From assembly GCA_008632985.1 (NCBI GenBank), contig QPGO01000166.1, forward strand, positions 62,001-126,000: a stretch of DNA of 64,000 nt, in the 5' to 3' direction. Below the pieces are notes generated by a model. That model worked only from the letters and a program-made list of their open reading frames with translations, did not search any database and had not been told where the DNA came from. The stretch's first letter is position 1, and each line of letters starts with the position of its first letter. Shown piece by piece: positions 20,517 through 63,207 of this stretch. The position numbers and the translations under genes were made by a program. This DNA comes from Psammoneis japonica. Taxonomy: Eukaryota.

Positions 20517-20543
20517 TGCTTCGACCGTGAATCGAACACGGGG

Positions 20544-20585
<42 letters not shown>

Positions 20586-20590
20586 AAGGC
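20517..20590 (-). tRNA. tRNA-Phe(GAA)
   Basis: Reverse complement GCCTTCGATAGCTCAGTTGGGAGAGCGTCAGACT-GAA-GATCTGAAGGCCCCGTGTTCGATTCACGGTCGAAGCA, followed by a T-run terminator. The acceptor stem has one extra or bulged C. Confidence 0.9.
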
Positions 20591-26688: not shown

Positions 26689-27500
26689 GTGAGCGAAACT
26701 CAGGGCCTTCAGATCTTCAGTCTGATGTTCTCCCAAACTGCTGGGCCATCAAAGCTGCTAAACTGACGCTGTTTAGATTGTTTGTGCCATGCAGCACTCT
26801 CCGTGCATTTGCTGCCAAGGCAACAACTTCTTGCACCACACTTTTCAAAGTTTTTTCTGATGCTCTCCCAAGTGGAGCTGTCAAAGTCACCAAGCTGTTG
26901 CCACTGAGCTGCCCACACAAAAACAGCAAGCCAGGCACAGGGTTTTCAGATCTCTGCAGTCTGACACTCTCCTGAACTGAGCCATCAAAGCCATGTTCAG
27001 CAGCTCAGTTTGAGAGAGCACCAGACTGAAGATCGGAGCACCCTGCACTTCTTGATTGGCAACCCATTGTGTGTGACGTGTTCATTTTAAATGGCAGTGC
27101 TGAAGCAGCTTTTAACAGCTCAGTTCAGGAGAGCATCAGGCTGAAGATCTGAAGGCAACATGTTTGATTTGTGGTCTCTCACATGAACATTTTTAATGGC
27201 AAGCTCTCACCAGCTTCGACAGCTCAATTTGGGAGAGCAGTGGACTAAAGATTTCAAGGCCCCATGTTTGATTCATGGTCTCTTGTGTTTGAGAGCATCA
27301 TGCCAAAAATCTGAAAGCTCTGTGCTCAATTCACAGCATTCAATGGAGACATTTTAAATGCCAAATGCCCAGCAGCTTCAGCATCTCAGTTTGGGAGAGT
27401 GTCAAACTGAAGCTTGACTTGTGCTGCATTTGATGTGAAAGCACTTTAAATGGCAAGCACCCAGAGCTTCTACAGCTCAATGTTTGGGAGAGCACCAGCT
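26689..27500. pseudogene. cluster of ~8 degenerate tRNA-Phe copies (2 on -, ~6 on +)
   Basis: Recognisable pieces such as gccttcagatcttcagtctga (-), cagctcagtt..gagagc..cagactgaagatc (+) and ggccccatgtttgattcatggtc; recurrent spacer ttttaaatggca. Confidence 0.85.
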
Positions 27501-33500: not shown

Positions 33501-36500
33501 AAGCCTGCATTTTGTGATGTTCTCAACACAAACAATGAGCTCAAGTTTAGAAAGATGGCAAAAGACAATGATGTTCACCCCACCTTTAAAGCTCAACTGC
33601 CCTGCTGGTCATTGACACAAAGCAGCACAAGCTTGAAATGTGGATCTGGGCGTGCAAGGGGTGCAGCGTGATGAGATGAACTCTCCCTCTCTCTGTTCCA
33701 TGTCTTGACATGACTTGTAGCCCACAGTTGGTTGTGATGAGCTTGTGCAAAAAAAACGCATCTCATGTCAAGGTCAAAGCACTGTACATTGGTTTTGCAT
33801 GTGCAAAATTGTCAAACAGTTGTTGGTTTTGTGTGTGGGTGTCACAACTGAAAAGCAGCCACCACAAAAAATGCACTTGATTGCACAATTGCATGCTCCT
33901 TCTGCATGTCATGCTGACAGACTCTGCAGGTCAGTGTGAAGCAAGCACCAACTCACAAACTCAGCATGTTCCCTGGCCTGGCTGACGCTGGCTTCATTTG
34001 TCATTGCCCTCACATGCTTCAGTCTGGCACCCAGCTTCTTTCTTCAATTTTTCAGAAGAAGTTCCCTGGCTTGATGTGAAGCCTTCCAGCCCACCAGAGT
34101 CCTGCCATGTGGGGAGAACAAGCAAGAAAGGCATTGAGTGGCAAGAAGGTTGACCCAAAAGCTGTTCACCGGCACCTCTTCATTTTGGATCTCATGGTTG
34201 TTCAACTTGTTGTCTTCTGTGCAAGTTTTTGCTCTCATTGTGCAGCATTTGTGGCCATGTGGTGTGGTGGTGGTGGCTGCAGGGGTCAAGGCTGCAAAAG
34301 GGCTGTGTGAGCAAGAAATTGTGCAGGAGCACTGGTGTGCCATTCTGGAGTGCACTCACTGATGCACTGCAAAACACAAGCACTTGTGTGCAACTGCAAA
34401 GCCACAAAAACTCCACCCACCCAAATTGGAAGCACCAGCGCTGCTGAAAAACATGTGCACAACAAAAATGGCAGAAACAAGCAAGGCATTTCAGCTCTGT
34501 CCCCATGAGAGATGATTCTGTCAAGGGCCAAATGGTCAAAAGGCTGGGTGCTGCAAACTCACCAAGGAGAGCAAGGGTCTCTGAACAGCTGTGATGCTGA
34601 TGAAGCCATCATCATGCTTGGCAGCAACCGCGCCATTTGTGGTTGTGCTTGTGGGAGTGCAGCTTTCAGTGCATGTCATTTTTCCCAGTGAGTGCAGCAC
34701 TTTCTTGGGCAGCCAGCTGCGCTGTTCTTTTGACACAATCCTTGTTTGTCACTCAAAGTGTGAGTTTGCCTTTCTTTGCTTCTCATTTTGCTGCTCAGAT
34801 GGGTGGACAGCCACCCCAAACAGCAACAACTCAGAAGATGTTGCAGCTCAACAACAAGGAAAACAGTGCTTTGACAAGCTTGCAGCTTTGTTGCTGCAAA
34901 CATTCCAAAAAAGGCTGCATGTGCATGCATGGTGGGCAGTCAGAAACACACAGATGCAGCTTTCTGCTGGAAACAGAGCATCCCATTTTTTGGGTGTTAC
35001 ACATGCAGTTGTTGTCTTCAAAATTTTTAGATTGGAACAAATTTTTGAATGACAAACAAGCAGAAAGCTGACATTCTTTCAATGACAGAGCACTTTGTTT
35101 GTCAAATGAAGCACAACAGGACATGCTGCCATGAGTGGCTGTGTTGCCAAAAACCAGTGCTGGGCAAAATTGCATGTGAACAAAGTTTTGTTTGTTCATG
35201 CAAAAGAAGGCTTCCAGTTTGCACAATGGAGTGCTCAGGCTTGCATGTTGAGCAGTGCATTTTGTCTGTGCCTTGATGTGTGCACAGCCAGTGCAGCTGA
35301 ATGCAAAAGAAACAATGCAGTGCTGCTTTGCTGCTCTGCTTCATGAGATGGGCCAAGTGTTGTGCAATCAGCACAGGCACCCAACCCATCTCTAGAGCCA
35401 TTTTGTGGGTGGTTTTGTGAGTTCAAAATGTCTTGGCACACTGGAAAATGACACATTTTCTGTTTTGTGTGGCAGCATCTGCCACTTGCCCAGCACAATC
35501 AAAAACCTGCAGCAACCTCACTCCACACAAATTCACGCACTTTTTTGCCCTCACCTTTCCAATGAAAAATGCCGTCTCTTCAACTGTGCAGCACCTTTCA
35601 CAGCCAAGCCAGCACCAGCGTGCGCAGCAGCACAAGTTGCTTGTCAAAAGCAGTGCAGGAGGACACAACAAGACAAAGGCTGCATGCACAGATGTGAGAG
35701 CTTTTGAGCATGTCAGCAAAAAGCAGAAAAGCAGATAACAAAAAAAATGTGGCTTCCCAATCTCTGCCAAAGTTGACAACATTGTCTTTTTTGACCACTC
35801 AAATGACTTTGCAGTTGTCACACCCCTGGCAGCAATTGCCCCAGCATTTGTTTTTGGGTGGACCCCATGCCTTCTTGGGAAGTTGTTGCTCATGACCTTG
35901 TGACATTCCCAAAATCTAAACAGGAAAATGCAATCACCGAAACCTGTTGTTTTGGAACTCCTGGACATTTGCTGCAGTGTGTGTGTGGTGGCTGCCACCA
36001 GTCTCTGAGAAATGTTCAAGCTGAGTGGGTCCAACCAGACTCGCATTGTTGTTTCCACGGTCATTTGATGGAAACATTGCAAGTCAGATGCATTGAATTG
36101 CTTTCCACACCCCCAACCCACAAGAAGCCAGGATGAACATGGTTTTTGTCACTCTGACACCCCTTGCATTGTGTGCCCATGAGTTCTTGGCTCCATGCAT
36201 GACAGCAGCCAGCCACTGACTGAACCACACCGCAAAAGTCTCACTCCTGACTTTGATCAAAGCTGTTGTGCCCAGCTGGCTGCATCTCCAGCTTTGGTCT
36301 TTGATGAAGATCCTACTCTCTCTCTCTCGAACGAACAAAACTCTCTATATATATAGAGAGAGGAGAGCAGCTGCTGCCTTGAGTGCCTTGAGCTCCTTTA
36401 ATTTTCGCGATCGCATCATTGTTCGTTGGAGATCATCTAGACATTTTCTATTTTTCAGCTAAGTGGTCTAGAAAATGTTTCAATCTATCACCAGTTCTAT

Positions 36501-38419: not shown

Positions 38420-41400
38420 AGTCCTGACGTCCTGACGTCCGTCACACATGCACTGGATGAACCAGCTTCTGCTTGGGTCCCCAGCAGTTTGTCAATGTGC
38501 AAAAGCCAGCACCATTTTGTCATTCTTCCCAGTTGAAGCCATCAGAGCTCCAAGCTTGACTGATGGGTCATTCGCTGTCATGCCAAGTTGCAGATCATTG
38601 AGAAGCAAGCTCAGCGACAACAAACTTGCGCAGCTGGCGCACTCTTTTGGCCATCTTTGGTGATCTCTGACCTGCAACCCCCAAATGCCAACAGTGTGCA
38701 CTGCAGCAATTTCAGCAATGGGTTCTTTGTGGAAAATGGCAGTGGAGAGCAGTGCCGGCACACAGCACTTGTGCAAAACTTCTGTTGACATCTTGAGTCT
38801 TCAAGAACTTGCAGCGCTGCCCTCTCCCAGGCTGGTTTCTTGTTCATGTGCTTGTGAGCAGAACAAAGAGGCACCCAATGGGGTGTTGGAAGCACACTCA
38901 TCATCTTTGGCCAGCTGGGCTGCTGTTGTTCCAGTCTCTTTTTCTGAGTGGAAAGCTCCAAGGATCCTCTTGGTCGCAACAAGGTGTTGCTTGCTGCGCT
39001 TCTTCTTGGCACTTGGTGCATTGTCAGCTTGAGAAATTTGTGAGCCATCGTGTGCAGTGTCTCATTTTGTGACATTTCCCACTCTTCACAGAACAAGCAT
39101 CATTTGCAAAAAATGTTGCAAACTCCTTTGATGTTTTCCAGTTTGCCAGGAATTCATTCTCAAGTCTTTCATCACCTTGAGGAAGTGGTGCACCCCAGCC
39201 ATGGAAGGCTGAGCATGCTGGCGCACTTGCTCAGACTTGGGCACACACCTTGGTGCCAGCACTTTGCGCGACAGTTTGGCAAACTCTTTGCCGTCCCAGG
39301 GAGGAAGCAGGCATCAGCAATGGTGCACTCAAATGCCCATGATGCAGCAAATTCAATGCAGTTGTGCACTCTTTCTTGTCCAACTTGGCTCATTTTCCAA
39401 CAGCATCTGCTGACTCACAAAAGATGCTGTGTGTGGGGTGTTGCAGTGCACCCAAGTTTCCAATGTCTGCCACCAGGCAATGAGCAGCTCCTGCTTGCAG
39501 TCAGCAACACCTTTGGTGTGGCTGGCATGCTGTCAAGTGAGTTGTCTGTCATCACATTGTTGTTGGCCTTGTGCATTTCTTTGCATTGCTTTTCTGCCAA
39601 TGGTCTCCATCTCTGCTTCAACACTCCAGCACACATTGAAAAAAAAACAGAGTGTTGAGGAATTGGCTGCTGCTGGATCACATTGTCACACACCCACTTC
39701 TGCCCAATGTGGCTCAGGACATGGAGTCAAAAACATGATTGTGCATTGTGTGCACACCACAGGAATCACATCTTGGCTTTCTTGTGTGCTGCTCCTGCCA
39801 ACTCTGTTCCTTGTTCCAAGTCAAGTGTTGCCATGTTGCTCCTTGGCACAAGGCTTGCATGCTTCAGATGCTTTTTGGCACCTGCTCTGATGTTGTTGCT
39901 TGTCTTGCCATTGCAGTGGGCCAGGTCACACCAAAACTCACAAACAGAAGCATCCGTCTCTGTGTCTTGTCCAGTGGATTCCAGGAACAGCAGAAGGGTT
40001 GGATTTCTTGCCCTTTTTGGCTGCCATCTGAGACTGCAGAGAAAAGTGCCAGGCACTCTCAATGTGATCCATCCAAAAAGAACATCATCTTTCACATGAA
40101 GCAAGTTAAAAGCAACATTTTTTCCATCATCATGTTGGTCACAGATTGCTTCCAGCTCAAACAAGAAAGTGTGTTGGGTGACCACAATTCTTGTGTGCTT
40201 GAGCTGTGCAGGCAACATCTGTGGGGGTTTGCAACAAAAGCAGTCCATCACACAGTCAGAGATTGGCATCTCTGCTTGACAATGCACAGAGTCAGCACAT
40301 GGACCACCATGCTGCCTCATCACTCCATCTCTTGGCCAGCTTTTGAGCAGTTGTGAGTCTCTTGAGAACAAAATTCCGCCCTGCCAATGCCAAGGAGTGT
40401 GCAAATGTTTTGACAGCCAAAGCTGCTTGTCCACCATGGACCCAGCCCACACTGCCTGGAGCCTCCTCTCTTGAAATTCCTCTTGTCAAAAGTGGCTTTC
40501 ATTCCTTCATGTCTTTGCAATGTGGTCAAAAGTGCTCACCCAGGTCACTTGGCACAGAAGCAACAGTGTTGAGCTTGTCAGCAAGCCAGCATGCTGCTTT
40601 GCTCCTGCTCTGCCAGCACAAAGGTGCTGCCCAGCTTTGGTGCTTGTGCCCATGACAATGCTGTCAAAAGTGAGAGCCATCTGTTTGCAGCCAGAGGTGA
40701 TGTTTGCTTGCCATCTCTGAAAAAAACATGCAGTGGGTGCGCTGGCACCAGCGCTGAGACCAAAAACTCCCTGACACAACAGGCACTCAAGCAACAATGA
40801 TGAGCCAACTCCTGCATCCATCTAGAGCAACAAAACCAAACTCTTTTTTTTTTGCTCTGCAGTTGATGAAAAGAGCACACTGGTTTTCAAACAGAGTGCA
40901 GCTGAGCTGCCTTGAGCAATCTTGCAATGTGTGTTTTGCACCATGGCTCCTCAAGGACAGGCTGAGAGTTCAGTCTGTGACAGTCTCCCCCACCATCTCT
41001 TTTGCCACCCATTGTTCTTTGGGGGGGGGGGGGGGGGCAGCAGCTTGAGCAAATTTTTGTTGCTTTCCAGCTGATCTCTCAAACAGCCAGTCTGCCCCTG
41101 CTTGACTTGGGCCTCAAACTTTTGCAGCAAATCTTCTTTGACCAGGACAACTTGATGAACTCCTGCACTGGACTTGACCCAACATGTTGTTGACAGACAG
41201 CCAGTTGACAGGGATGTGTCCTGTGGCTGCATGCATCCCAGAGTTCCCACACAGAGCTTTTTCCAAACAAGAACGGTGTGAAGGGAACTTTTCTTTCTCT
41301 GAAAAATCCTCCCACTGCAGAGAAGTCATCTTCCTTGTGCACCAAAATTGCAAAATGCCACACTTGCAAACTGCTCAACCACATGGTGTTGTGCGTCAAC

Positions 41401-43970
41401 CAACAGCAGAGGAGATTTGGCTCAAATGGCTTCCCAAGCAAGTGCGTGCAGCCACAAGTGGCTCAAGGTTGCACAGAGTCTTCAAAAGTGGAAGCCAGGG
41501 ATCACGCAACTCATGTTGACACCTGCAGATTGGAGAGCAGCATGTGCAACAGCTCTGGCAATCAGGGCCACATCTGTCAAATGCACCCCAAACAAGTGCA
41601 GCAAAGCAACCTTGGCATCTTGCCTCTGCCCAAAAATCCAATGAAAACAGCACCTTTTGCCCATGCCTGAGAATGATGCACACCACCTCCTTTCCCCATT
41701 GACAACAGTGCTGTGAAAAAGAAATGCAGCCATTGTGCAGCTGCGCTGCAAAGGGTCAAAGAAATCCAGGTTGCATTTGTCAGTGTGGGTGCCTTGCATG
41801 GTTGTGCATTTTGAACAATGCAATGAGAGGGCTGCATGCATCATTGTGGTGTGCAGATGTTTTGCACCAGTCAGCAAGCCCAGCATCCAGCATGAGCAGC
41901 CATGAAGATTGGTTGACACCAGAAAAATGATGGGCACATTGCAGCATGCTGCAGTCCTCCATGTTGTGAGAAAAAGGCATGTCACTGCAGCTCTGTGGAG
42001 CTGGGCACAGAGACAAAAGAACTGCAGACATGGCTTTGGACAAATGTCTGCACTGTTCTCCCACATGCGCGCCATTCTCCTGGGGATTGGGGTCATCCAT
42101 GTGGGGCTCTTTGGAGCTGTGTGTGCATTGCTCCAGAGCAGCTGTTTTTGCAGCCTTCCTAATTTGTCTTTTGTGCTTTGTCAACTTAAAAAATCAACCA
42201 AAGAGTGCCAGTCAATGCACAACACAGTTGCGACAAGTGTTGCAGGGCAAATCACCGCACCAGTTGTCAGAAGCAAAAAGATTGAGACAACAGTGGAGAA
42301 AAACAGAATCACTCAATTGGCATCATGCACGTTTGGGGTGCACAAAAGCTCAATGTCACTTGCACTCAATGTTGTTGCCACATTGACAAACTCCTCACGT
42401 GATGCCCCACAGCTGGGCAAGGATCATGCATGTGATGCAGTCATCCTCTTTGCCCCTTCTTGAGGTCAGGGAAAACAAAATGGACTGTGCACTCACCATT
42501 TCCCAAGAATGACCAAAAAAAGTGTGCCAAGAGAGCACTTGCTTTTTGCCAAAAAACACAAGGGCTGCTCCTCTGGCACCCTGCCACAGATGAGGACAAG
42601 AACCCCGGGTCAGTCAATTTGGGCTTCTCCTTTCAAATTGAAAGGCACCATCTGACCTGTTTACAAGCGAAACTGAGCCATGCTGTCCTCCTTGTTCTCA
42701 AGCTTTTTTTTGGGAAAAACAAGCTCCTCCTTGCCACTGTTTTTGCTTTCTAAGAAACCACCAAAATGCCAGCTCCACCAGCAGCCCATCCTCTCCATTG
42801 TGTGGAAATCTGGTGCATCAATGGCAAGAAGCAGAGCTGTTGGCTGGGCAGAGGAGAGCAAAGCTGCAGCACCAAATGATGCCACCCTGTGCCAGCACCA
42901 AAACTCCCATGTTGTTCACACTCCTTTGAAAGAGACAAGACAACTACCATCTTGTTTGCAGAGGTGTGATTTTGAGAAAGAAAAAGATCATGCTTTGATG
43001 GTGCCACAACAAAGAAGCCAAGCTGAAGTGTGCCTGAGAGTTCTGTGTGAGCCACATGCAAAAACATGTGGGCTCAAGATTCTTCTGCTTCACTGCTGTG
43101 GAAAAAAAAGAATGACAGATTCAACAAAGGCCAGCTTGCACACTTGCTTGTCTGACTGCAAGACAGTGCTTGTTCTCTCAGACCTCTTCCAACTCATGCT
43201 TCAATGCAAACTGCAAAACTTGGCACTCCCCGGCCACTCTCACACAGCAGTTTGGTCTCATGCTGTGCCCGCCATGCAATGGTGCCCTGCTGATCTGCTG
43301 TGTGGTGACCATGCCCCCTGCTGCACCACTCCTCCCTTGGTCACAAATTTTTTTGTTTTCCACAGCCATCTGAGATGTCCTCTTTTTGCCTCCCTCCATG
43401 GTTGGTTCACACTGTCCGCTGTCCCACCTTCCCAGTGACTGCAATGAGACACCTCCTCTTGGCACTGTGCTCAAATTGTGAGCTGAGAAACATGCCACCT
43501 CAACCACACAAGGGCGCACACATCATTTTTTTTGCTGCTGAACACCTTCAACACCTTTTGGGCACTTGCCCACCAACTCTCCCATTGGCTCATCATCTGA
43601 GCCCCCCCTTTGGTCTCCCAAGCCCTGCTTGCTCCACTCTGGACTTCAGAGTCTTCTCTCAAGCACATGTGGTCTGGAGCAACAAGGAACTCACCACTCT
43701 GGAGCAGAGAACCCCCTCCCATTGGGGCCTCCAAAGCATCAGACACACTGTCACTTGTCACCAGATTGCTTGCAGACCCACTTGACAGCCATGCTCTAAA
43801 GCTCGACAATCTGCCACCTCCCCACTGCACCCACCTTCTGCCTTTGCATGTCACATTTCTGCTGCATTGTTGGAGCTGTCTGCCAATCAACCCGTGCCCC
43901 TTGGTGACCTCCCCACTGACTGCTCACAGTGGCGGATAACCAACCAGCATGCAGCACCAGCAAGTCAACC
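38420..43970. other. TpA/CpG-depleted hypermutated block 3
   Basis: Only about ten TA dinucleotides found by eye in ~5.5 kb; CG is also rare. Confidence 0.85.
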
Positions 43971-45482: not shown

Positions 45483-45572
45483 TTGGGTTCAAAACTGCGG
45501 TTTTGAACCCATTTGGGTTCAAAACTGGCAGTTTTGAACCCAAATTGGGTTCAAAAGTGCAGTTTTGAACCC
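45483..45572. repeat. three tandem ~30-bp palindromes GGGTTCAAAA-N5/7-TTTTGAACCC
   Basis: Read directly; lies in the divergent intergenic region. Confidence 0.95.
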
Positions 45573-51400: not shown

Positions 51401-53200
51401 TCACCAGGCCTCATCGAGAATATAGTCGAAACGAAACTTGGATGAATGAGCATCTTCTTGATCTTCATTCTCCTCTTTCACCATCAAAATTTGCGACTTT
51501 TCCGATGGCATGCACTCCATGTTGCTAGCACCTTTTTTATTAGAGTCCACCCTTTGGAACGAGCGCATCGCTTTATGGATCACGTCGACGCCAAACTCAA
51601 AATTCGACTGCTTGTTTTGAGTGGTGATCTCTCCCTGCTTCGTTCAGGGTGGACCACACTCTCGGTCAGCAGTCTCTCTAGAGCTGACTTTCTAACATGA
51701 ATGGAAGAAGGAAGAATCAACACAAGAAACGCAATCTAATCTCAATCAAGACAGATGCAGTGTCAATTGTCCGTCTTGCTTTTCGTCGCGGCCGCAAAAT
51801 TCCAAAATCCCATCTTGCTTGTATGCGCGGTGAGCGCATAGCCCAAATCCAGTGGGATTTGTGTTGCACATGCAGACAGTGGCTCAAGCCTGTGTGTTGC
51901 GATTGCAGTGCCAGCAGGACAAGGGCCGTCTCGATTTTGTTTAAAGGTGGATTGTTGAGAGAGTCCCAGAGTTTGTAAAATGGCAGTCGCATCATCTTCA
52001 AAGTCCCAAAATTTGAGCATTTTTGGCATGCGCATGTTTGCATGCCAACAAGGCGAAGAAGAAAATGTTTGGTCTGTGGCGAATGAAGAGCCGAGCCATT
52101 GCCCCAAGAGGCTTTAAAGCACGCAGAACAAAATTCTAATGTCACTCAAGGGCTATGACGGTTTTAGCAATGCAGTGAGGGGGGTCAAAAAACTGCATCG
52201 ATTGAGGTTTTTACCTCAATTGAGGTGCTTGGTGGCCAGACACTCTGGCCAGCTGCTCAGCTGGCTCTAAAAAGTGGAGGGCCCTGCCGTCCTGCCGCAC
52301 ATCACACCACCCCTTCACAAATGGAGAACATCCACAACCCATGCTTGGGGGTCACAAAATGTCTCTGATGGCATTTTTGTCAAAAATCCAGAAGCCGGAT
52401 TCCGCGTGCACCGGTGCCCTCTGCAAACAAGTGCCTCCATTGACCTCTTGCAATGTCTCCAAAACACATTGTGACCTGCCTTGCTGCAATGCTGCATCAC
52501 AACATGGCTGAATTTGTTCTTGATCCAGAAGCAGTTGAATTCTCAGCAACAGGCAGATCACGAGCGTTGCTGACATGATGACCAATGGGAGTCATTGCGG
52601 CTTTGAGGGTCATTGCATGGAAATTGTGTGGAAGAGCACCAGAAATGATTGTTGTCAGTCTGTCTGCCCTTCTGCACTTGGATGTCAACTTCTTGGGAAA
52701 TCAATTGAAATGTTGTCTGATCAAAGGCACTGCTCTTCACCATGCAAATAAAAATGCCTTTGGTCAGATGACATTTCAGCTGAGTTCCCAAAACGTTGCT
52801 GGCTCCAATCACCCTCTTGCATGACATTGTGTGCATTTCTGCATGATTTGGCATTCTTCCTTGTGCAAAATGCCAATTGTGACTCTTGCAACATTCTCGA
52901 ATGATTCCCATTGGACATGAAATGAACAACTGCACTGACCAGCAAGTTGATGGGTGCTGTGTGACCGAAGCATTGTTGGCGAAGCTGTTGACAATCATGC
53001 ACAACAAACAAGTGTTTTGTCACTCAGCAAAATGCAACAAGCAGAAGCAGTTGTGTGTGTTGCTGTGCACTGCATTTCAAAATCTGTTGCAACACCCACT
53101 TTTGGCATCAACAAGAGTGAGACCATGTCAGAGAGCAAAGCACACATGCCCTTTGTTGCCAACTCAATTCCAGTGTCTTGTTGGAACTGTCAATGTGTGC
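51401..53200 (-). pseudogene. eroded gene whose 3' end lies in normal DNA and 5' part in block 4
   Basis: Protein-like minus-strand fragments (..SKFRFDYILDEAW*, DFEDDATAILQTLGL.., LTTIISGALPHNFHAMTLKAAM..) with more in-frame TGA and less Tyr further upstream. Confidence 0.4.
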
Positions 53201-56200
53201 CAAAAACTCTTCCAATTCCTGAATGAGTGGTTCCATCAACTGTGCATGCTGCCACTGCCACTGCTGCCACTTGTCACACAGTTGCAGCAATTGGGCCTGC
53301 TGCCGCTGCCACTGCTGATGCTTGATGCTGTTCACCATTTTCCAGGGATTTGGGCCACTGCTCCTGCTGAGTTGGGTGGATTGTTGACTCCATCAGCAAC
53401 ACAACAGTCAAGCCTGAAGTTCCAAGCCTGGCACTGACTTGACACTTGGGGACAAGAGTGACCTGGCAGACTTGGGTTCCTTGAGACTTTCTGGAAACAA
53501 TGGGTTGTGCCCTTGTCAATCTGTTGAGAACAAACTGGAAATGCAGTGCAAGCATGACAAGTGAGAATCCAGCAGATGGCACAGAAGGCAGTTTTTGCCC
53601 ATTCTTCCATTTTTTCTCACCTCTCTTTTCATGGGTGCATTTGTTGCAGCAAACAGCAATGTGTTCTTTGCTGATGTGATTGTTGGGAAGCATGCGGGTG
53701 TCATGATGGAGCAAAGCACCTGTCGACATTGTCATGGTTGATTTGTTGTCATCATGTTTGGTGTTCACAGCATGGGAAAAGAACATTTTTGCTGTTTTTG
53801 TGTCAGCAAGCCATGCATGCAATGCACACAGTGCATCACACACAATGCAACAATTGTGGCAAACCAGGCCGTGGGGAGCATTGACCACTTGTCTTTCTTT
53901 GTGGGTGTGGGTGTGTGCCGTTGCATGCTGCATTGCCTGCACTGTGCGCACGCAGGCCCTGCTGTGCCATGGGGCCAATGTTGCTGGTGTGTTGCAGTGG
54001 CAGTGTGGCATGGCTGCCACACTGGTGATGCAAATGACCATTGCATTTGATGGCTCATGCCATTTTTGAGGCTGCAGCGAGGTGCACGGACACTCTTTTT
54101 TTAGTTTGTCGCCAAAATGGCGCATCGCACAAAAGCACTCATTGTTCGATGTGTTTTTCCAATGTGACTGTTTTGTGTGCAATTCACAACAAATTGTGTT
54201 TGTCCAAAGCTCGGTGCATTTTTCAACATGCCATGCCGGCAACCCCAATTTTGCCGCACTTTCGAGCTCTCCTGAAAGACCATTCCATGCACCCACCACA
54301 GGGAATGCATGATTTTTTAGGATGTTCCCATGACCTCTAATGTCCTCAATGATCATCCTGCCAATCCAGATGATTCATTTGCTCTGAACAACCCATGCCA
54401 TTCCAAAATCTGAGGGACACACTTTCAAATTTGGATGGACCGACTGCCAGAGGACTGCCGGACCGACTGCCCGACACAAAAAAGTCTGCAATCACCAACC
54501 ACTGAGTGGTCAATGAAAGTCTGCAATCACCAACCACTGAGTGGTCAATGAAAATGCACTGCGTGAGGGTGCACATTGTTTCCCCTGCTCATCATTGGCG
54601 ATCAATTTGGACAAAAAAGTTTTGGCTTTGACAAGCTCACAGGGCACCAAAATGCATTTTGCAACCACATTTTGTGACAATGGCTTGTTTTAGAAGGAAA
54701 GCTTCTGTTTTGGCATGTTTGAGAACACACTGCCTGGGTGCTGAGAGCATGGCACATTGACAAGTCTGCTCTCAATGAGCATGAGTGAAGCAGGAGTCTG
54801 GGATGAAGTTGCAAAAGTGGGGCCCTGCCACACAGATGAAGCCTGCCTGAGGCAATCATGGCCAAGCTTTTTTCAGAACATCATCAGCTGTCTTTGTCAG
54901 CTGCACTTTGAGCAAGCTTGCAACACATTGGCCACAACTGGCAGCAATGTCCATGCCTCCACAGCGCTTCCAGTGCATGGAAGTGGAAAATCATGGGGAG
55001 TGTGTCAGGTGGCTTCTTGGGTCATGGTCTTTCTTGAAAAAATCCAACAAGCACAATGCCCGCTGCAATCAAAGAGCTTGCAATGGGCACCACCACAGTT
55101 TGGAAGAGTTGTCTTCAAGCATTGCTCAGCTTCCATGACCATCTCATCATCCACCAACTTGTGAAACTCCTGGGTCTCATTCTCGCTGGAAAGCAAATGT
55201 GAAAGAGCTTTCTCAGCAAAATCTCTTGGGCCAGCACACAGCCAATGTGGTCAATGATTGCTGCACTGGCTTGCTTTTGCAAGCAATGTCTTCCATGGGC
55301 ATTGATGGTTTCCACACTTGACTCTGTGTTTCTCATCACATGCAATGACACCTCACAGAGAGCAGCATCTTCTTGCAGGCTCCATCAAAAAGACCAATCA
55401 TTCTCAGCCAACCACTGGGGAACTCTCTTGCAAACTGCATCATCCAAAAGAGTGGACACATTTGGTTTGCAAAAAAAGCACTGTGCAGCTTTGGGACAAG
55501 AGGTGGGTCGTGTTGGACCCACTGAAAGGCTGTGCAAGTCATCAAGCCTCTTTTTCTCTTTGCTGTGCTTGGTTTTGACAAAGCTCTTGTGCAAAACCAC
55601 CATCATTGGTCCAGCCATTGGTGCTGTTTTGTTGACTGGTCTTTGTCTCGTGCACAGTGGCATGAGCAGGTGCATCTCATGACAGTGTGTGATGCAGCCA
55701 TTGTCAAATCACATCTGCTCTGGTCATGCCACAGATGCAAGCACCCAGAGCATCACTTGAGCATTGTCAAAATTTTCAGCATGGCTTGTGTGCATGCATT
55801 TTGGCTTTTTCGATCACAGTCTTTTAAGGTTTCAGTGGGCAGCATTTGGAGAGAAGATCTTGCTTGCGTGCAAGCAAACCCCTGGCAAAGACACCAATGA
55901 TCACAGGCGGGGTGGCCCTGCTGTGGGAGAAGCTGTCTTTGCCTTGTGGTCTCATTGTCTTGAGTTGCCAAAAGGTGCACAGCACGAGGAGCACTCAGAA
56001 GTGATCAAAGACTTCTGCCTGGGTCAGATTCTGCCCCACCAGGGCAATGATGCACAAGAAGCACCAGACTTGGTCAAAAGCATCATGGCACTCAGCTGGA
56101 GCAAGCACTCATCGCAGGGTGACAAAGCTCCAAAATGAGCTTGCAAACATCATTTTGCCATGCTTCAGAAAGCACATGCCAACAACCTGGACAACCCTTG

Positions 56201-59200
56201 GAAGACAAAAGGCAACTTTTGTTGTGCCCCAGTTTGCAAGAAATCTTCAACCTTGCACTTTCAAAGAGTGCCATGAGCATTGCTGGCACCTGGAAAGCAG
56301 CTGCCCCAATGCATTTTCAAGACCCCTCAAAAGCAAAGAAAAAGTGAGGTGCAGACTGCAACAGCTGTGCACTAAAAAAGCACAAGACATGTGCCAAGAG
56401 TGCAACAAACCAAAGTGTCCTTGAGTCTTGCCAAAGGTGATGGTGAGCAAACTTGGGAAGTTGCCATCAATGTTTCTGTGCACTCATCTGGCTTGGCCTT
56501 CTTTGAGATTGCTTTGTTCTGGCTGCATGAGTTGCTCAACTCATGCTGAATTTTTTTTGTGTGTGCCATCCTGACTGTGGTTGCTTGGGTGTGGATCCCA
56601 AGGAAGGCCGCATGTCTTGTCAAGATGGCTCTTTTGAGCCAACCATGAGACACTTGTGTCTGTGCACAAGTGCACCATGGGGATCACAAAAGTGCAGCAA
56701 TCTGGGCCTGCTGAAGGCTGCTGCAAGATGCACAAAACCTCATTTTGCACTTGCCACCTGCAGGAGGCACAAAGCTTGGCAATGCAAAAATCTAAAATGG
56801 CAAAAACAAACCCACAAGATGCACATGGAAGGTGATGGTGTGCACAACATGAAAGAGCATCATCAGCCATGTGTTTGGGCATCATCAAGCTGTGAAAGCA
56901 TGCGCCCATGATCAAAGTGGGTGGTTTGTTGGAGCTCTCACACACCCTTTTGTGATCTTGGTTGGATTCAACTTTGATTGCGTGGAGCTTTTGTGCGTGC
57001 TGCACTGCCCTGCTGGCAAGATTGTGCCCATGATTTGATGCCTCAAGCCTGGCATCTCACCTTGCCTGCCATGGCTCACAGTTGGCTGAGTGGGTCAAAC
57101 ATTTGGCATTGATGGGCGCCAACAAAGAGAGCATGTAGAGTGGCAGCTTAGAACATAAACTTGTCAGTGGTGAGAGAAGGTCAAGCAAATTGTGAGCATG
57201 AAGCTGAGGTGCAGACAAAGAAAGAATTGTGGTCATTTGCAGGAATGATCAACTGCTGTGGAGATGCATGGTGCGTCGCCATCTGGATGACATTTTTGGC
57301 ACACCTTGCAAGACTTGCAGCATGTGCCATCAATGGAGTTGGATGCATTTCAAAGAGAGGAAGCCTTCAGCCAGTGCCATCAAGCCATCAGCATCAGAAG
57401 AGATGTCACTTGCACAGAGATTTCAATGAAGCCATTTGAACTTTCCACCAGTGCCTCCAAACATCAGCTTGGAGAGCAGTGGTGTGTCACAGGGCTGGCA
57501 AGCCATTGGCACTTTGTGAAAGCAGAAAGCTCAACAGCAAGCAAGTGAGCCACATGCTGATGGAGAGAGAAATGCTTGCCATTGTCAAGACTCTAAAAGA
57601 ACCCAGTTCTACACTCCTTGGCAATCATGCAGCATTGTGTGTGCTGATCATCATGAAATCACTCACAATGTGCCCAGCACAATGATTGCACAATTTGTCA
57701 GCACTTGATGAGCAAAGAGTGCAGAAGGCCTGAATCACTGGGCATCAAAGGCCACCACAATTTGGTTGCTGATGTGCTGAGTTGTCTTGTTCTTGTGCCA
57801 CCCATGGACTCCAAATGCAGCCTCATCCCACAGCAACAGCAACACTTGAAGTGTGCCCTCCACATGAGGCCTTCACAGCAAAAGTGGCAGACAATCAAAA
57901 GACCCCATTGGCATCAAGCAACTGCAAATGGAACAGCACAAAGACAAGAGCAAGCATCTGACAAGTGCCTGTGCACTCTCCTTTTGTGAGGAAGAAATCC
58001 TCCCATGAGAGATGCTCTTTTTGTCACAAGGGCCACATTGTTGTCCAGGCATCCCTGCAGAAGCAGGTGCCTTGCACACATCAGGGGAGTGCATGGTCAA
58101 GTGATGCAGAAAGAAACTCCTGCATCTGTGGACAGTCAAGATGGGTTGAACCCACAACAGGCTGATTTGAGATTGCTGAAATGTCTGCATGGCATGCCAA
58201 AGCTGCATCTCATGACACTGAGCAAGTGTGGCTGCACAAATGCCCTTGGCCAAGGAAGGCAATTTTCAACAGAGGCAGCAAACTCATTGTCAGACACTCA
58301 GTCAAGGGATGCACAGGGTGGCTGTGGCCTTCAAAAAAGAAATCCACACGGCTGATCACACCAGCCTTCAGGCAAGCTCCACAGCAGAGAGCATGTGCAC
58401 AGGCAGCCAGAGACATGATGATGTGTGGCACAGGGCATGGAGCTGGATGGCACACCATCATCATGACTCACCTGAAAAATTTTGATCCGATTGCTCACTC
58501 CATGCTGCTCAAGCAAAGAGAGCAAACAATGGCAGTTGTGCCACAACTGCTGCACTTGACACTGACCATTGTTTGTGCAAGTGGCTTGGAGCTTGCGGTG
58601 GTTGCGTGTTCTGGGTCTTCTGGCATGGACTGTTTAGAGCAAGTTGTCTCCAATGGTGTGGAACACTGTTGTGGTGTTGCATCTCTTGTCATTCTTCCAG
58701 TGCTTGAAGGTGACAGAAATTGCATCGGCCAGTGCCAATTCTTGGTCTTCATGATCCAGTTTGGTGTCATCATGGAAAAAGTGCAGGTTCTTGAGTGTCA
58801 GTGGCTCAGTTCATTGTCCACATGTGGTTTTGGAGTGTTTGCAAGAATGCATTGCAAAGAGAGCCATGTTTCTGACTGGCACTCACCAAACAAGAACAAA
58901 AATCAAAGCACAGGGCTGTTGGTCATGCAGGCCTTGCTGAAGTTGGCTGCTTGTGTGAAGTGGTGACAGCTGCACATTGCACATGTTGCACTGGATGGTG
59001 CTCCAACACAGATGCACACAACCTGCCTTCAATTGTGCCTTCTGTTGTTGGCGTGGTGTCTGACATTTTGTGGACCTTGTCATGGGGAGTGAGCAACACA
59101 CACTGCACCACACCGGCTGATGAGACTGCTGGCAGGTGCAAGCAACATCTTGTTTCAAGAGGCTCTTGCTGCTGTGGGGTGCATGCAGCCCAAAAATGTG

Positions 59201-62020
59201 CACTGCACACACCTGCACAAACTCATGCTCATTGCACTGAGCAGGGGCACTGGCACAATCACACACTGACTGAGAGTGACCCACGTCATGAGGAGGGAGA
59301 GGGTTGTGTGTGCACTTGGTTGACCCAGCCTCAAAGTCACCATGGTGAACAAGCACTTGAGAAGCCTTTGCCAGCCCTTGTCAGCAGATGTGGTGGTGTT
59401 TGTGTGCATGAGTTGTGAGCAAGTGCTTTTTCATGTGCACCCGGGCATTTCATGGTGAAATGAGCCAGTTTAGAAGTGACTTTTGTGGCCATTGACAGCA
59501 GCAAACTTTGCTGCTGCTCAGTGCCCATTTCCCATCTTGTTGCACAGGGCAAGATTGTTCCTTTGAGTGAGTCATGGGTGCTTGTGTCTTTGAACAAACA
59601 AGCCATGGTGACCAAAAAATGATGATCATTGTCTGCCACCAGTGCAAATCAGTGCAGAGGGGTGTGCTGAGGTGTGCAAACTTGCTCAATGCCTGCAGGA
59701 GGCAAAGCTTGGCAACATGAAGCACTGCATTTGTGTGGCCACATCAGCAAGGTGTGCATGGAGAGGAGCAGTGTGGCTGCCAGTGTTGCACTGCACATTC
59801 TTCTTGCTCAGTGCCCACAGGGGGAGCAAAGCTTGGCAATTTGATCCTGATTTATGTGCTGAAATGGAGGGATTGCAGGGGCTGCAGCTGACTGCTGCAA
59901 GAGATGCACATGGAGAGAAGCACCCCAGCCAACACAGCTTTGCACCTTCCAGTGTGCAATCCATCTGTGTCTTCCCCCTGCCCTGACCCCTGCTGGACCG
60001 GAGACAGATGGGTGAGACAAAGTTGGGGTTTGGGGCTGACCACTTTCAAAATGACTGAATTTGCAAGCATGGTCTTTGTGTGTGAAACGGCCTCCAATCA
60101 CTTTCAAAGGCTTTGAGACACACACAAAATTTGCTCAGCATGTGGCCACAAAACATTGAAAATTTGAATTGCCAGCTTCTTTTTGTCTTTTTATGAGACT
60201 CACCTCTCATCAGTGGCGGACATGCAAAACTCATTGACAGCAAACATGCCACCATTGAAAATCAGCAAAGACAGATGAAGCAAAACCAACCCTCAACTCT
60301 TGTTTTGATGCCTGCTCTGGCAACTGCACAACACAACCCCCCACAGATTTCTGCTGGTGAGCAGGCCCCTTCCTGCCCTTTGCTCATGTGCCCCAAAACA
60401 TCACTGGGCTCAGCTGGCAAAACACGGGGAAGGTGACCTCACCCAACAACTGCCAATCTTCATCAACTCTGGGCCAACCAAAGGAGCACCTTCCCTCAAC
60501 TCAACCCCCCCTCCCCCCAAAAGCCAGCTGTGTGTGCCTCTGCTTCCTTTTTCTCCTCCTCCACACACCCCCTTGCTGAGAAGGTTGAAAAAGTCAGAGG
60601 ATGCCAGCCATGACAGAGAAACTGAAGAAGCAGGCCCACATGCCTTGGTCAGCCCCCAGCAGTCTGCTTGACATGAGCACCTGGGCAGGCTGCAAACAAA
60701 GAGTCCTCAAGCAGCTTGCTTTGCAATGTGAAAGAAAGTGGCTGGCTTGACTGGGCTTGCCAAATCATGGTGGACAACAAAACTGCTGCTGGTGTGCACA
60801 TCTTCAACTTCATCGGCCCACCAAGAGCTGGGCAGCAAGCCACAAGGGCAGCAGGCACAAGTGTCACACTCTCTCTGCTGATTGCACCAAGCAAACAGAG
60901 CAAGTGGTTTTGCCAAGTTGAAGAGAGAGGCAAGAAGCCAAGATGATGCCAACAAGCTCAGTTTTGTTTCACCACAGGATTTCCCAAAATTCCCTGGGGG
61001 ATCACTGCCTTTTGCTGTGTTCTTCCATGGAAAGCATGAGTTTCTGGGGAACAAACACAAATTGTGCTTCATTGTGCATGTGCTTGACACATGAACAAAA
61101 AATTGCACATTGGAAATTGCCCATGCTTCCCTGTGCAATTTGACATGAGCGCAGCTGTCCCAGAGCTGTGCAGCACTGTCAGACACCACACACCACACCG
61201 TCACACTCTTCTGCCACTTCAACAGCTCAGAGTGCTGTTGTTCATTGACAATGGCAGCTGCTCAGCTTCTCTGCAGCTGTGGCATCTTTTCGTGGCCTGA
61301 ATTCTTTCTGATGCCACTCAGTCGGTGCCACATGTTTCTCATTGTGACACGAGTGGCAGTCGCATCTTTTTGTTCAGATGACACCCACCCAACACATCAT
61401 CACATCAAGATGGGTGGCAAAGTTGTGTTTGGGACACAGCCAGCTGGATGTGTGGCTGGTGCAAGCAGTCATGCAGCAGCAGCCAAGCAGATCAACCCGC
61501 AACACAACAAACAATGGCAACAGCAGCAAGCTCCAAACTGCAGCATGATGACAGATGCTCTCTGAGAGCAGACAGTGACAAAATCTGTTGGACCCAGAAG
61601 CACACCTGCCCAAACTGTGTTGATCCAGAGTCACCGCGATCCATGCATTTTCTGCTCCCCCCCCTGAGCCCTTTCAGCTGCTCCTTTTGCCGTCTCCCGG
61701 GCATGTCCCAAAAGGGCAAGCAGCTCCCCCTTGCCCTTGCCATTTTGGGGGATCCCCGGGTGGGTGAACCAAACCAAGCCAACAAGATGCTTTGAAGCAC
61801 TTTTGCAGTGCTTTTCAACTTTTGCCAATTTCCCTCTGGCATGACAGCCCACCTTTGAGATGAGTCAACTTGAACCTCGTGGCAAAAGACTGTGTCAACG
61901 AAGATGAAAGATCTTTTGTGAACGTGCGCGCAGGAGCACAGTGTCGGGTGAACGGGGCACGGCCATCCAGCAAAGTGTCCAACCCATGTTGGAGTCAGTC
62001 AACTCTGAGTGAATGAACAC
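51980..62020. other. TpA/CpG-depleted hypermutated block 4
   Basis: Same composition as block 1; contains the Gypsy relic and a 35-bp tandem duplication at ~54483-54552. Confidence 0.85.
57200..57790 (+). mobile_element. degenerate Ty3/Gypsy LTR-retrotransposon pol fragment (RT thumb + RNase H)
   Basis: KKELWSFAGMINCCGD (cf. KELRSFxGMxNYYRD), PFELSTSASKHQLG (PFxLxTDASxYxLG), GKPLAL..SRKLNSKQ..EREMLAIVKTLKE, IKGHHNLVADVLSCL (GxxNxVADALSRL). Confidence 0.85.
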
Positions 62021-62028
62021 ATAAAAAA

Positions 62029-62196
62029 TGACATCGGCAGGATTTGAACCTGCGCCAATTAAGAATACGACCTGAACGTACCGCCTGGATGGATTGGGTG
62101 ACACGGGTCGAAATGATGTGAGAGAAGTGTGGAAAATGGCGGTAGGTGGTGTTCCCAGGATGCAGCACTGACCTTAGACCACTCGGCCACGATGTC
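62029..62196 (-). tRNA. tRNA-Leu(CAG) interrupted in the D-arm by an 88-nt GT-AG insertion (62085-62172)
   Basis: Joining 62196-62173 to 62084-62029 gives GACATCG TG GCCGAGTGGTCTAAGGC G GTACG TT-CAG-GT CGTAT TCTTAATTGGC GCAGG TTCAAAT CCTGC CGATGTC A, a full cloverleaf. T6 terminator downstream; TATA-like element ~25-30 nt upstream. Confidence 0.9.
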
Positions 62197-62355
62197 TAGG
62201 CATTTATGTGAATCTTTTGGTATATAAAATGTTTTTCTTTGTAGGGACTGGGAACTGAGAGGTCTGAATAAACTCCTCTGCAATGGCAGGTAGCAGCGCA
62301 TTCGATACTCGAAGAGGACGTAAGGCCTTACATTACAGAAAGCAACACCAACACA

Positions 62356-63207
62356 ATGATATGGCGAAGACTTTTTCCCGCTGAAGGAGGAGGGGCTTTG
62401 CGTCGATGGACCAGAGTAAAGAAAGATCTGATTGTGAAGGCACTCGACTCGGAGCATGTCTTGAAAGGTCCGATCACTATCTTCGATTTCGCGCAACATG
62501 ACGATGCAGTCGATGCGGCCGCGGTAGATCATGGTCCAACCAAAGGAGGATGGCGAATTTCAGATGATGAAGTAATCGGAGGATTCTCGAGAGGGTCAAT
62601 GTCACTGATTTATACACAGGAATGCTACAAGCGAGCAATGCGTGGAGAAAAGCCAGTTCCGATCAAGATCCAGGAGAAAACTGACCCACATTTTATACCC
62701 TTTATTCGATGGAAGGGAAAGATTGATACTCGAATCGGAGAAAATAGTAGAGTGGCAAGGTCTGGCTTTTGTGCGATTCGATCGCCTGAATTTCCCATGG
62801 GTGGTGCAGACCTCGAAAACAAGTACAATGCATTGGAATTACTGTGCAGAAGTGATGGGAGGGTTTACACGGTGAATCTAAAGGTATCGAGCTATTTTCC
62901 AGATGACCTTTACCAGGCTATCATTTCCGTTCCTCCAACTCATCCAAACAAAAGTGAAATATGCGACAAAACTGGAGGAGAATTTGCGCAACTAGTCATG
63001 CCATTCCGAGATTTTCTTCTCACGGCGAACGGGCGAGTACGAGAAGTGCAACGCGAATTAGATGGCGGGGTTCGAATTGAACACATCGGCATTACTCTGA
63101 TGGATGGTGAGGACGGGGACTTTGAGTTTGATCTTGCCCGTGTCAGAGCAATCAATTACTATCACGGCGAAATTCTTGGAGAAGACGATGAAGATACTCC
63201 GTACTAG
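62356..63207 (+). CDS. NDUFAF1: complex I intermediate-associated protein 30 (CIA30)
   Basis: [60 protein letters not shown]. Confidence 0.9.

Follow-up and report, generated by a model that had tools for sequence, protein, structure and literature searches.

Nuclear tRNA genes are canonically interrupted at position 37/38 by introns that are removed by the tRNA splicing endonuclease (TSEN) and a tRNA ligase, a removal which is needed for function. Non-canonical introns located in the D and T regions have been established in algal nuclear and nucleomorph tRNA genes, including those of Cyanidioschyzon merolae, Chondrus crispus and Guillardia theta (Soma 2007, 2013; Cognat 2022; Kawach 2005; all as cited in PMC13578239). 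According to the same source, these introns, of which there are sometimes several per gene, are missed by standard tRNA finders, display bulge-helix-bulge (BHB)-like motifs and are cut by the tRNA endonuclease; the algal tRNA introns treated there comprise the 37/38 and BHB types alone, and no GT-AG kind is given for diatoms.

The closest described case of an mRNA-type intron in a small RNA gene comes from fungi, among them Schizosaccharomyces pombe, where the U6 snRNA gene is interrupted (Tani and Ohshima 1989, 1991, as cited in PMC5855946). This is a GT-AG intron in a small structured RNA gene of Pol III type, with A and B boxes, whose removal by the spliceosome has been demonstrated, and its origin is explained there by reverse splicing into an RNA located at the catalytic centre.

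In other sources, tRNA introns are kept apart from spliceosomal ones: three nuclear intron types are called unrelated (PMC12530127), tRNA introns are termed "non-spliceosomal" (preprint 10.64898/2026.07.09.736142), and spliceosomal-type tRNA introns are unmentioned in two further articles (PMC4090602, PMC3978253). The PlantRNA article (PMC3531208) gives Phaeodactylum tRNA introns for eight amino acids, in a figure-legend list that does not include leucine. Full-text literature searches outside subscription journals and bioRxiv supplements did not turn up any tRNA gene with a spliceosomal-type intron, and no such report is known to us. Another related phenomenon is that of the introners, which Huff et al. 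in 2016 and Gozashti et al. in 2022 reportedly described in Micromonas, Aureococcus and other, often marine, eukaryotes. Introners constitute families of near-identical copies, in which a short insert creates a GT-AG intron and can land at an AG/G site with a short repeat at the junctions.

In this work, we describe a tRNA-Leu(CAG) gene interrupted in its D-arm, found in a 64,000-nt stretch of DNA (hereafter, the window, i.e., the whole stretch that was analysed), together with a set of tRNA-Leu genes from metagenomes that are split at the same spot. We estimate at roughly 0.6 the probability that this locus is a working diatom nuclear tRNA-Leu(CAG) gene, with a U2-type GT-AG intron in the D-arm that would be removed by the spliceosome. 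As in genes with canonical introns, a nuclear tRNA gene is interrupted and removal is needed for function; unlike these, the interruption lies at position 23/24 instead of 37/38, and GT-AG ends are conserved. The locus shares with the non-canonical algal introns cited above a D- or T-region location in eukaryotic tRNA genes, the presence in related cases of several introns per gene, and the failure of standard finders to detect them; however, a test for the BHB motif failed here, and the boundaries of the tRNA-Leu introns are GT-AG or GC-AG, accompanied by branch-type words. As in the fungal U6 gene, a GT-AG intron interrupts a Pol III-type gene that has A and B boxes and encodes a small structured RNA, the host being in our case a tRNA, for which removal by the spliceosome is proposed.

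A tRNA-Leu(CAG) gene interrupted in the D-arm

The large open reading frames (ORFs) of the window encode TRM13, an SMC protein, Vac14, a DBP5-type helicase, a CS-domain protein, an RNA methyltransferase and CIA30. The best relatives of the DBP5-type helicase were all diatom proteins, with 63-76% identity, indicating that the window is nuclear DNA of a diatom without a close relative in the searched database.

Across the whole window, the sole tRNA called by ARAGORN was a tRNA-Phe (20589-20517, minus strand), and none was called on the genomic sequence at 62029..62196. The alignment of the interrupted gene to the Rfam tRNA model covered model positions 1-71, placed 85 inserted nt in the D-loop and scored 18 bits, below the gathering score of 29. 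Once the 88 nt of the insert were excised exactly, ARAGORN reported an 80-nt tRNA-Leu(cag) with every stem intact: the acceptor stem has 7 bp and the D stem 3 bp (GCC/GGC), and the anticodon arm, a long variable arm and the T arm are present (Table 1). The first-pass annotation had described this locus as a tRNA-Leu(CAG) with an 88-nt D-arm insert, leaving the minus strand implicit, and had stated that removal restores the GCC/GGC D-stem, with the A box, B box, stems and terminator intact; these statements were borne out in full.

The two internal promoter boxes, A and B, are each contained in a single exon, and the insert lengthens the distance between them to approximately 128 nt. A T6 run is found immediately downstream of the gene, and the tRNA-Phe gene of the window also ends in T6. 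Upstream, the TATATA element lies between the tRNA gene and a divergently oriented CIA30 gene; the probable start codon of the latter, near 62284, is 88 nt from the tRNA gene. AGG is present at both junctions of the insert, which results in four cut registers with an identical product, GT...AG being one of the four; in this register, the cut falls at tRNA nucleotides 23/24, in the 3' strand of the D stem (standard numbering, by our own count). A simple acceptor/T-arm scan of the window detected no other split tRNA gene, the scan being insensitive, as the tRNA-Phe gene was also missed.

Table 1. Coordinates and descriptions of the features of the interrupted tRNA-Leu(CAG) gene, and of the introns in split tRNA-Leu genes from metagenome contigs. 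Positions in the window are counted from its first letter.
Feature	Location	Strand	Description
Interrupted tRNA-Leu(CAG) gene	62029..62196	minus	168 nt; 80 nt once the insert is removed (ARAGORN; Rfam alignment)
TATATA	62221..62226	minus	-30 to -25 relative to tRNA nt 1; putative promoter element
Exon 1	62196-62173	minus	24 nt, 3' end ...GGTCTAAG; acceptor 5' strand, U8 G9, D-stem 5' strand, D-loop, first base of the D-stem 3' strand
A box (TGGCCGAGTGG)	62189-62179	minus	Entirely inside exon 1
Insert	62172-62085	minus	88 nt, GTCAGT...CCATCCAG (CCAG end), 65% pyrimidine
Allele-variable intron interior	62102..62154		11 differences, intron positions 19-71
CTCAC, candidate branch site	62119..62123	minus	A 34 nt from the intron 3' end; both alleles identical
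Exon 2	62084-62029	minus	56 nt, 5' start GCGGTACG; remaining D stem, anticodon arm, variable arm, T arm, acceptor 3' strand, A73
Anticodon CAG	62074-62072	minus	In exon 2
B box (GGTTCAAATCC)	62050-62040	minus	Inside exon 2
T6 run (TTTTTT)	62028-62023	minus	Immediately 3' of A73; Pol III terminator-like
L002 / L019 type, 10 loci	D-arm		Intron of 134 or 137 nt; Leu(CAG)
L013, 1 locus	D-arm		Intron of 51 nt; Leu(AAG)
L045 / L051, 2 loci	D-arm		Intron of 92 nt; Leu(TAG)
L033, 1 locus	D-arm		Intron of 53 nt; Leu(TAA), with a 13-nt intron at 37/38 besides
L014, 1 locus	D-arm		Intron of 54 nt; Leu(TAA), with further introns
L014, additional intron	Variable arm		GTATGC...CTAAT...CCAG
L014, additional intron	T-loop		GCAAGT...CTAAC...GCAG; GC-AG, with a typical GC-AG donor
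L023, 1 locus	D-arm		Intron of 50 nt; Leu(TAA), with further introns
L023, additional intron	Between nt 33 and 34 (anticodon loop)		GTACGC...TACTAAC...CTAG; single possible register
L023, additional intron	Variable arm		GTATGT...CTAAC...ACAG
L041, 1 locus	D-arm		Intron of 56 nt; Leu(TAA), with further introns
L041, additional intron	Directly after the anticodon stem		GTACGT...CTAAT...ATAG

Resemblance of the insert to local mRNA introns

Seven mRNA introns were predicted in the window as frame-consistent GT-AG candidates between coding ORFs, with lengths of 73-112 nt, donors GTATGT (two), GTAAGA (two), GTGAGT, GTAAGT and GTGTGT, 3' ends CAG, TAG or AAG, and a pyrimidine content of 52-64%. The insert of the tRNA gene falls within this length range; the match in size to local introns had been proposed previously, and it stands, the range given at that time being 87-117 nt. 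Its pyrimidine content and its CAG end are also in keeping with the local set. The donor AAG/GTCAGT, which together with the final AG is defined in one of the four equivalent registers, agrees with the local mRNA introns at positions -2, -1, +1, +2, +4, +5 and +6, and carries C at +3, a position occupied by a purine in 7/7 of the predicted local donors. With four linked registers, GT, AG and A/G/T at +4 to +6 would come together in one of them by chance with a probability of approximately 1e-4. Nevertheless, the comparative evidence presented below constitutes the real test, because the locus had been picked in the first-pass annotation for the GT-AG pattern itself.

With regard to the branch site, the description of the insert as pyrimidine-rich with TCAC branch-like words agrees with our data: besides the CTCAC candidate (Table 1), an alternative TCAC is found 14 nt from the 3' end. 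A CTNAY word occurs in 47% of shuffles of the window intron, and CTCAC alone is a weak signal. The intron of the window also contains a TTTT run, which in the second allele described below is a TTTTT run at intron positions 37-41; these runs could act as a premature Pol III stop.

Allelic variation at the locus

DNA contigs from three runs of one sample, which is probably the source of the assembly itself, were aligned to positions 61900-62330; the resulting allele evidence is not independent of the assembly, because the runs probably share its sample. The contigs of runs X1 and X2 displayed a two-branch bubble at 62072-62184, with depths of 33 and 27.6, flanked by single contigs with a depth of about 52-60. 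The branch with a depth of 33 is identical to the window sequence and the other one shows 11 differences, so that we interpret the bubble as allelic variation in a diploid. Both junctions of the insert are spanned, in two allelic versions, by short-read-type contigs from two runs, four contig records covering at least 62072-62184, and a misassembly that placed the insert in the tRNA gene is hardly credible, even if the sample is probably the assembly's own.

The alleles are identical in the first 18 and the last 17 nt of the intron and in both exons, and all the differences are in the intron interior, which amounts to a 12.5% divergence of the intron. The intron (11/88) exceeded both the exons (0/80; Fisher p = 8e-4) and the flanks (about 4/263; p = 8e-5) in allele differences. 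The insert is consequently not recent, and the fact that the intron diverged while the exons and the splice-site regions remained fixed argues against both a fresh insertion and a decaying pseudogene. As possibilities for the excess of the intron over the flanks, transcription-associated mutation at active tRNA genes, a process said to have been described by Thornlow et al. in 2018, and gene conversion may be mentioned.

In the same DNA runs, other loci were found to share the ends of the gene: contigs with depths of 47.8 and 52.1 join 62058>62166 and 62064>62172, and the summed contig depth over exon 1 reached 414. These joints, with a skip of 107 nt, may represent genes for other Leu isoacceptors, whether interrupted or not. 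No contig in the DNA runs joined the exons with a skip of 88 nt, the joint expected from an uninterrupted copy of identical sequence, a weak result, since contigs may be filtered out. The additional loci would fit the alternative that we are dealing with a dead copy of tRNA-Leu(CAG), in which intron-like DNA (an introner or another mobile sequence) was inserted, while intact Leu genes supply the tRNA. The T4 and T5 runs within the insert, the departure of the donor from the local consensus at +3, and AGG at both junctions would fit this alternative as well, whereas the identity of the alleles at 80/80 exon positions, next to the 11/88 differences in the insert, speaks against it, and so does, to a small extent, the lack of an 88-nt skip among contigs that can be filtered out.

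A mobile origin was further assessed on the insert itself. Neither a second copy in the 64-kb window nor terminal inverted repeats at the insert ends were found, and the insert bears no likeness to the other D-arm introns described below, which also counts against the dead-copy alternative. An introner or transposable element insertion with an AGG target duplication is not supported, given the lack of window copies and inverted ends. The first-pass annotation had considered a fresh introner-type insertion with AGG duplicated at the junctions: the freshness is not supported, in view of the missing copies (none was retrieved in the 64-kb search), the missing inverted repeats and the allelic differences, while AGG is indeed present at both junctions, as a consequence of the exon context and the AG end and not of target duplication. 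In fact, the AGG repeat is found in every D-arm example, because exon 1 ends in AAG, exon 2 starts with G and the introns end in AG. The locus resembles introners in being a short insert that creates a GT-AG intron at an AG/G site with a short junction repeat, and differs from such near-identical copy families in having no second copy in the window, alleles this far apart, and no inverted ends.

Split tRNA-Leu genes in metagenomes

A metagenome scan was performed with a pattern in which GTNNG was appended to the 3' part of exon 1, by which GT..G is forced at the 5' end of any insert and the 3' end is left free. From the 55 loci retrieved, 17 corresponded to tRNA-Leu genes interrupted at the same D-arm spot, belonging to 7 sequence families (Table 1), and the others were uninterrupted bacterial-type tRNA-Ser(GGA) genes (7), tRNA-derived repeat-like sequences (29) and 2 other loci. 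The tRNA identity was established with ARAGORN after exact removal of the introns. All 17 loci share an identical split site, with TCTAAG before the insert and GCG after it, and in 7/7 families the D-arm intron ends in AG, which the pattern did not force and for which the expectation by chance is (1/16)^7. A scan of viral contigs in which GT was not forced gave 11 loci, none of which (0/11) was an interrupted tRNA gene; these corresponded to phage or bacterial tRNA-like genes and coding sequence.

The strongest evidence is, in our assessment of these sequences, provided by introns that lie outside the search pattern. Three of the tRNA-Leu(TAA) loci, L014, L023 and L041, are interrupted at further unusual sites by 5 additional introns with GT-AG or GC-AG boundaries. 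None of the 5 was dictated by the pattern, and all have to be removed before ARAGORN detects the tRNA. After their removal, L014 was directly called as a tRNA-Leu(TAA) with a canonical intron; for L023 and L041, the anticodon was initially placed one base off, and the tRNA-Leu(TAA) call was obtained after excision of inserts of 22 and 33 nt at 37/38. The introns at 37/38 in L014 (32 nt), L023 (22 nt), L041 (33 nt) and L033 (13 nt) show no GT-AG ends. These four genes thus contain both 37/38 and GT-AG-type introns, and two visibly different kinds of intron coexist within one gene.

A CTNAY word located 8-45 nt from the 3' end was observed in 10/13 introns (that of the window and 12 others), vs 4.8 expected from shuffles (p = 0.004), and in the short introns the branch word is located 9-15 nt from the 3' end. 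Sequence likeness among the D-arm introns was restricted to L002 with L019 and L023 with L041, and the window intron showed no similarity to the metagenome D-arm introns (z < 3); what the D-arm introns have in common is position and signals, not sequence. No usable ORF was detected in the 500-nt flanks of the metagenome loci, and outside the tRNA exons these sequences bore no resemblance to the window. The set points to the occurrence of split tRNA-Leu genes in several unrelated environmental eukaryotes. Moreover, genes split at the same spot and retaining intact cloverleaves in 7 other families, some of them with three such introns, are not what would be expected of a dead copy bearing a stray insertion, an alternative that we consider unlikely.

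Comparison with other intron types

The insert lies in the D-arm (23/24 in the GT-AG register) and not at 37/38, the canonical place of introns of the BHB/TSEN type. The BHB motif was evaluated by strict geometry: two 3-nt bulges hold the cut sites, a 4-bp helix separates the bulges, and further helices flank them; a relaxed form would retain at least the central helix. At the window insert this motif was absent, the central helix having at most 1/4 pairs in each of the 4 registers, which agrees with the earlier remark that no BHB is obvious at the locus. A full BHB was found in 0/14 introns of the class, the nearest case being L023 (178-230), with 3/4/3 of 4 pairs.

These data bear on the alternative that the gene is functional and its D-arm intron is cut by the tRNA splicing endonuclease, followed by ligation, via a relaxed or unrecognised motif. 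The non-canonical introns established in algae, the red-algal origin of diatom plastids, and the single intron out of 14 that comes near to BHB geometry (3/4/3 pairs) make it conceivable, as does a 10-nt, 90% complementary pairing of intron positions 26-35 with the 3' junction plus exon 2 nucleotides 1-9; this pairing, however, is near the chance level for 261 nt by our estimate, forms no bulge-helix-bulge, and has 2/9 pairs broken in the other allele. Besides the absence of BHB in the 4 registers, an endonuclease-based removal leaves unexplained the GT...AG ends, the GC-AG intron beginning with GCAAGT, and the CTAAC words placed 9-15 nt from the 3' end, features that none of the 37/38 introns in the metagenome genes carry. 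We regard this alternative as distinctly unlikely. Regarding self-splicing introns of group I or II, these were rejected, since positions 61500-62700 gave no hit to any Rfam intron family at E <= 10, and 88 nt is far below the length of known group I/II ribozyme cores.

Discussion

The preferred reading of the locus is that of a working tRNA-Leu(CAG) gene with a spliceosomal D-arm intron. That this is a spliceosome-processed tRNA gene had been advanced in the first-pass annotation, and the proposal now has sequence and comparative evidence in its favor. The tRNA gene would be a new class of host for an intron of the known spliceosomal type.

We infer transcription, the polymerase and all RNA-level steps as follows. 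Driven by a tRNA-type promoter, with TATA at -30 and the A and B boxes in exons 1 and 2, respectively, transcription would proceed up to the T6 terminator and give a precursor of about 180 nt; alternatively, Pol II read-through from the divergent CIA30 promoter region might provide the transcript. U1 would pair with AAG/GUCAGU, and a branch adenosine, either in the candidate CUCAC at 34 nt from the 3' end or in UCAC at 14 nt, would attack the donor. The end of exon 1 (G23) would then be ligated to the start of exon 2 (G24), yielding the D stem G10-C25, C11-G24, C12-G23, and in the last steps the ends would be trimmed and CCA added. A precedent for a spliceosome acting on a Pol III transcript is provided by the U6 gene of S. 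pombe (PMC5855946). The reverse splicing by which the U6 intron is explained in that text relies on the location of U6 at the catalytic centre, an argument that does not carry over to the D-arm of a tRNA. Also unlike U6, the tRNA-Leu site is occupied across several isoacceptors and lineages, with some genes carrying three introns.

Considering the window and the metagenome genes jointly, the evidence leans towards a broader proposal, in which spliceosomal introns would constitute a fourth, undescribed class of tRNA introns, beside the TSEN/BHB, group I and group II classes. According to this proposal, the spliceosome would take a routine part in the maturation of tRNA-Leu from a Pol III-type gene in diatoms and in several other eukaryote lineages, position 23/24 would be a shared and possibly old intron position across Leu isoacceptors, and standard finders would miss genes of this kind.

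Textbooks and current reviews consider tRNA introns and spliceosomal introns to be unrelated, the former being removed by a protein endonuclease (PMC12530127, PMC13578239). If the spliceosomal reading is true, the cell would need its mRNA splicing machinery to supply the tRNAs that read CUG and other leucine codons, and the substrates of the spliceosome would include Pol III transcripts beyond the fungal U6. Furthermore, tRNA censuses based on tRNAscan-SE and ARAGORN would under-count tRNA genes in diatoms and other protists; ARAGORN missed the gene described here and Rfam scored it below threshold. Some of the "missing" isoacceptor genes of algal and fungal genomes may be hidden split genes. 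The locus offers a simple and directly testable system, consisting of a single short RNA with a single junction.

Surroundings of the split tRNA-Leu gene

Two pairs of complementary segments were found around the split tRNA-Leu(CAG) gene (Table): a perfect 8-nt complement of the 5' leader (-14 to -7) with the 3' trailer just past the T-run, and a 10-nt complement (90%) of intron positions 26-35 with the 3' junction and the start of exon 2. Both are, by estimate, at about chance level; in the second allele, represented by the other branch of a two-branch DNA contig bubble, two pairs of the intron/exon 2 complement become G-U and 2 of its 9 pairs are lost. Further heterozygous sites were observed in the DNA contigs directly upstream of the gene, where part of the region is covered by contigs in two versions, each at roughly half the flank depth. 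These sites and contig versions fit a diploid whose heterozygosity in this region is about 1-3%.

Related loci in metagenomes

Among the 55 metagenome loci recovered by our scan, 29 (L001, L003, L004, L006, L008-L010 and others) are tRNA-derived repeat-like sequences forming one large family, in which a Leu-type D-arm head precedes GTGTGGGTCTGCGGCC-like sequence and a body of roughly 150 nt that is conserved; these are probably SINEs of an animal host in gut-type samples. Three other loci, L014 (pre-tRNA 1-300), L023 and L041, are tRNA-Leu(UAA) genes, each interrupted by two or three introns with GT-AG or GC-AG ends, located across the three genes in the D-arm, anticodon loop (33/34), variable arm and T-loop, in addition to an ordinary 37/38 intron in all three. 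The signals of these introns look fungal: GTATGT, with TACTAAC or CTAAC lying 9-15 nt before the intron end, and lengths of 50-59 nt.

Blocks depleted of TpA and CpG, and their neighboring genes

TpA and CpG are both nearly absent from approximately 41% of the window (26 kb), distributed in four blocks with observed/expected ratios of 0.01-0.07 for TA and 0.07-0.24 for CG, while CA+TG reaches 1.8-2.0 times expectation and G+C is unchanged. Comparison of the blocks with one another revealed no mutual repeats, and to our knowledge no process is known to deplete TpA and CpG together in such manner. Because TAA and TAG are absent there, long spurious ORFs occur in several frames; all Pfam-matched genes of the window lie outside the blocks.

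A near-perfect palindrome of GGGTTCAAAAC-type units adjoins a DBP5-type helicase gene on the upstream side, with weak Rfam matches to mir-649 and mir-607, both far under gathering scores.

The tRNA-Phe(GAA) gene scores 64 bits with Rfam; in the ARAGORN register a C1-C72 mismatch tops its acceptor stem, and a G lies one base upstream.

Table. Features of the window and the data from which they were recognized
Feature	Window position	Detail	Basis
TA/CG-free block	15991-20286		dinucleotide counts
TA/CG-free block	27228-36198		dinucleotide counts
TA/CG-free block	38579-43824		dinucleotide counts
TA/CG-free block	52547-61749	end near 61750-61900	dinucleotide counts
tRNA-Phe(GAA) gene	20517-20589	minus strand	ARAGORN
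Palindrome	45485-45572		
tRNA-Leu(CAG) gene	62029-62196	minus strand	
Leader/trailer complement	62018-62025 / 62203-62210	8 nt	
Intron/exon 2 complement	62076-62085 / 62138-62147	10 nt	
Upstream heterozygous region	62197-62330		DNA contigs
Heterozygous site	62203	T>A plus inserted A	DNA contigs
Heterozygous site	62232	T>A	DNA contigs
Contigs in two versions	62271-62330		DNA contigs

Each of the two tRNA genes lies approximately 130-280 nt outside a block edge, which is near 20286 in one case and near 61750-61900 in the other, and the 3' end of the gene faces the block. With only two genes, this placement may be due to chance; tRNA genes act as boundaries in yeast, and the placement at block edges would fit such a boundary role.
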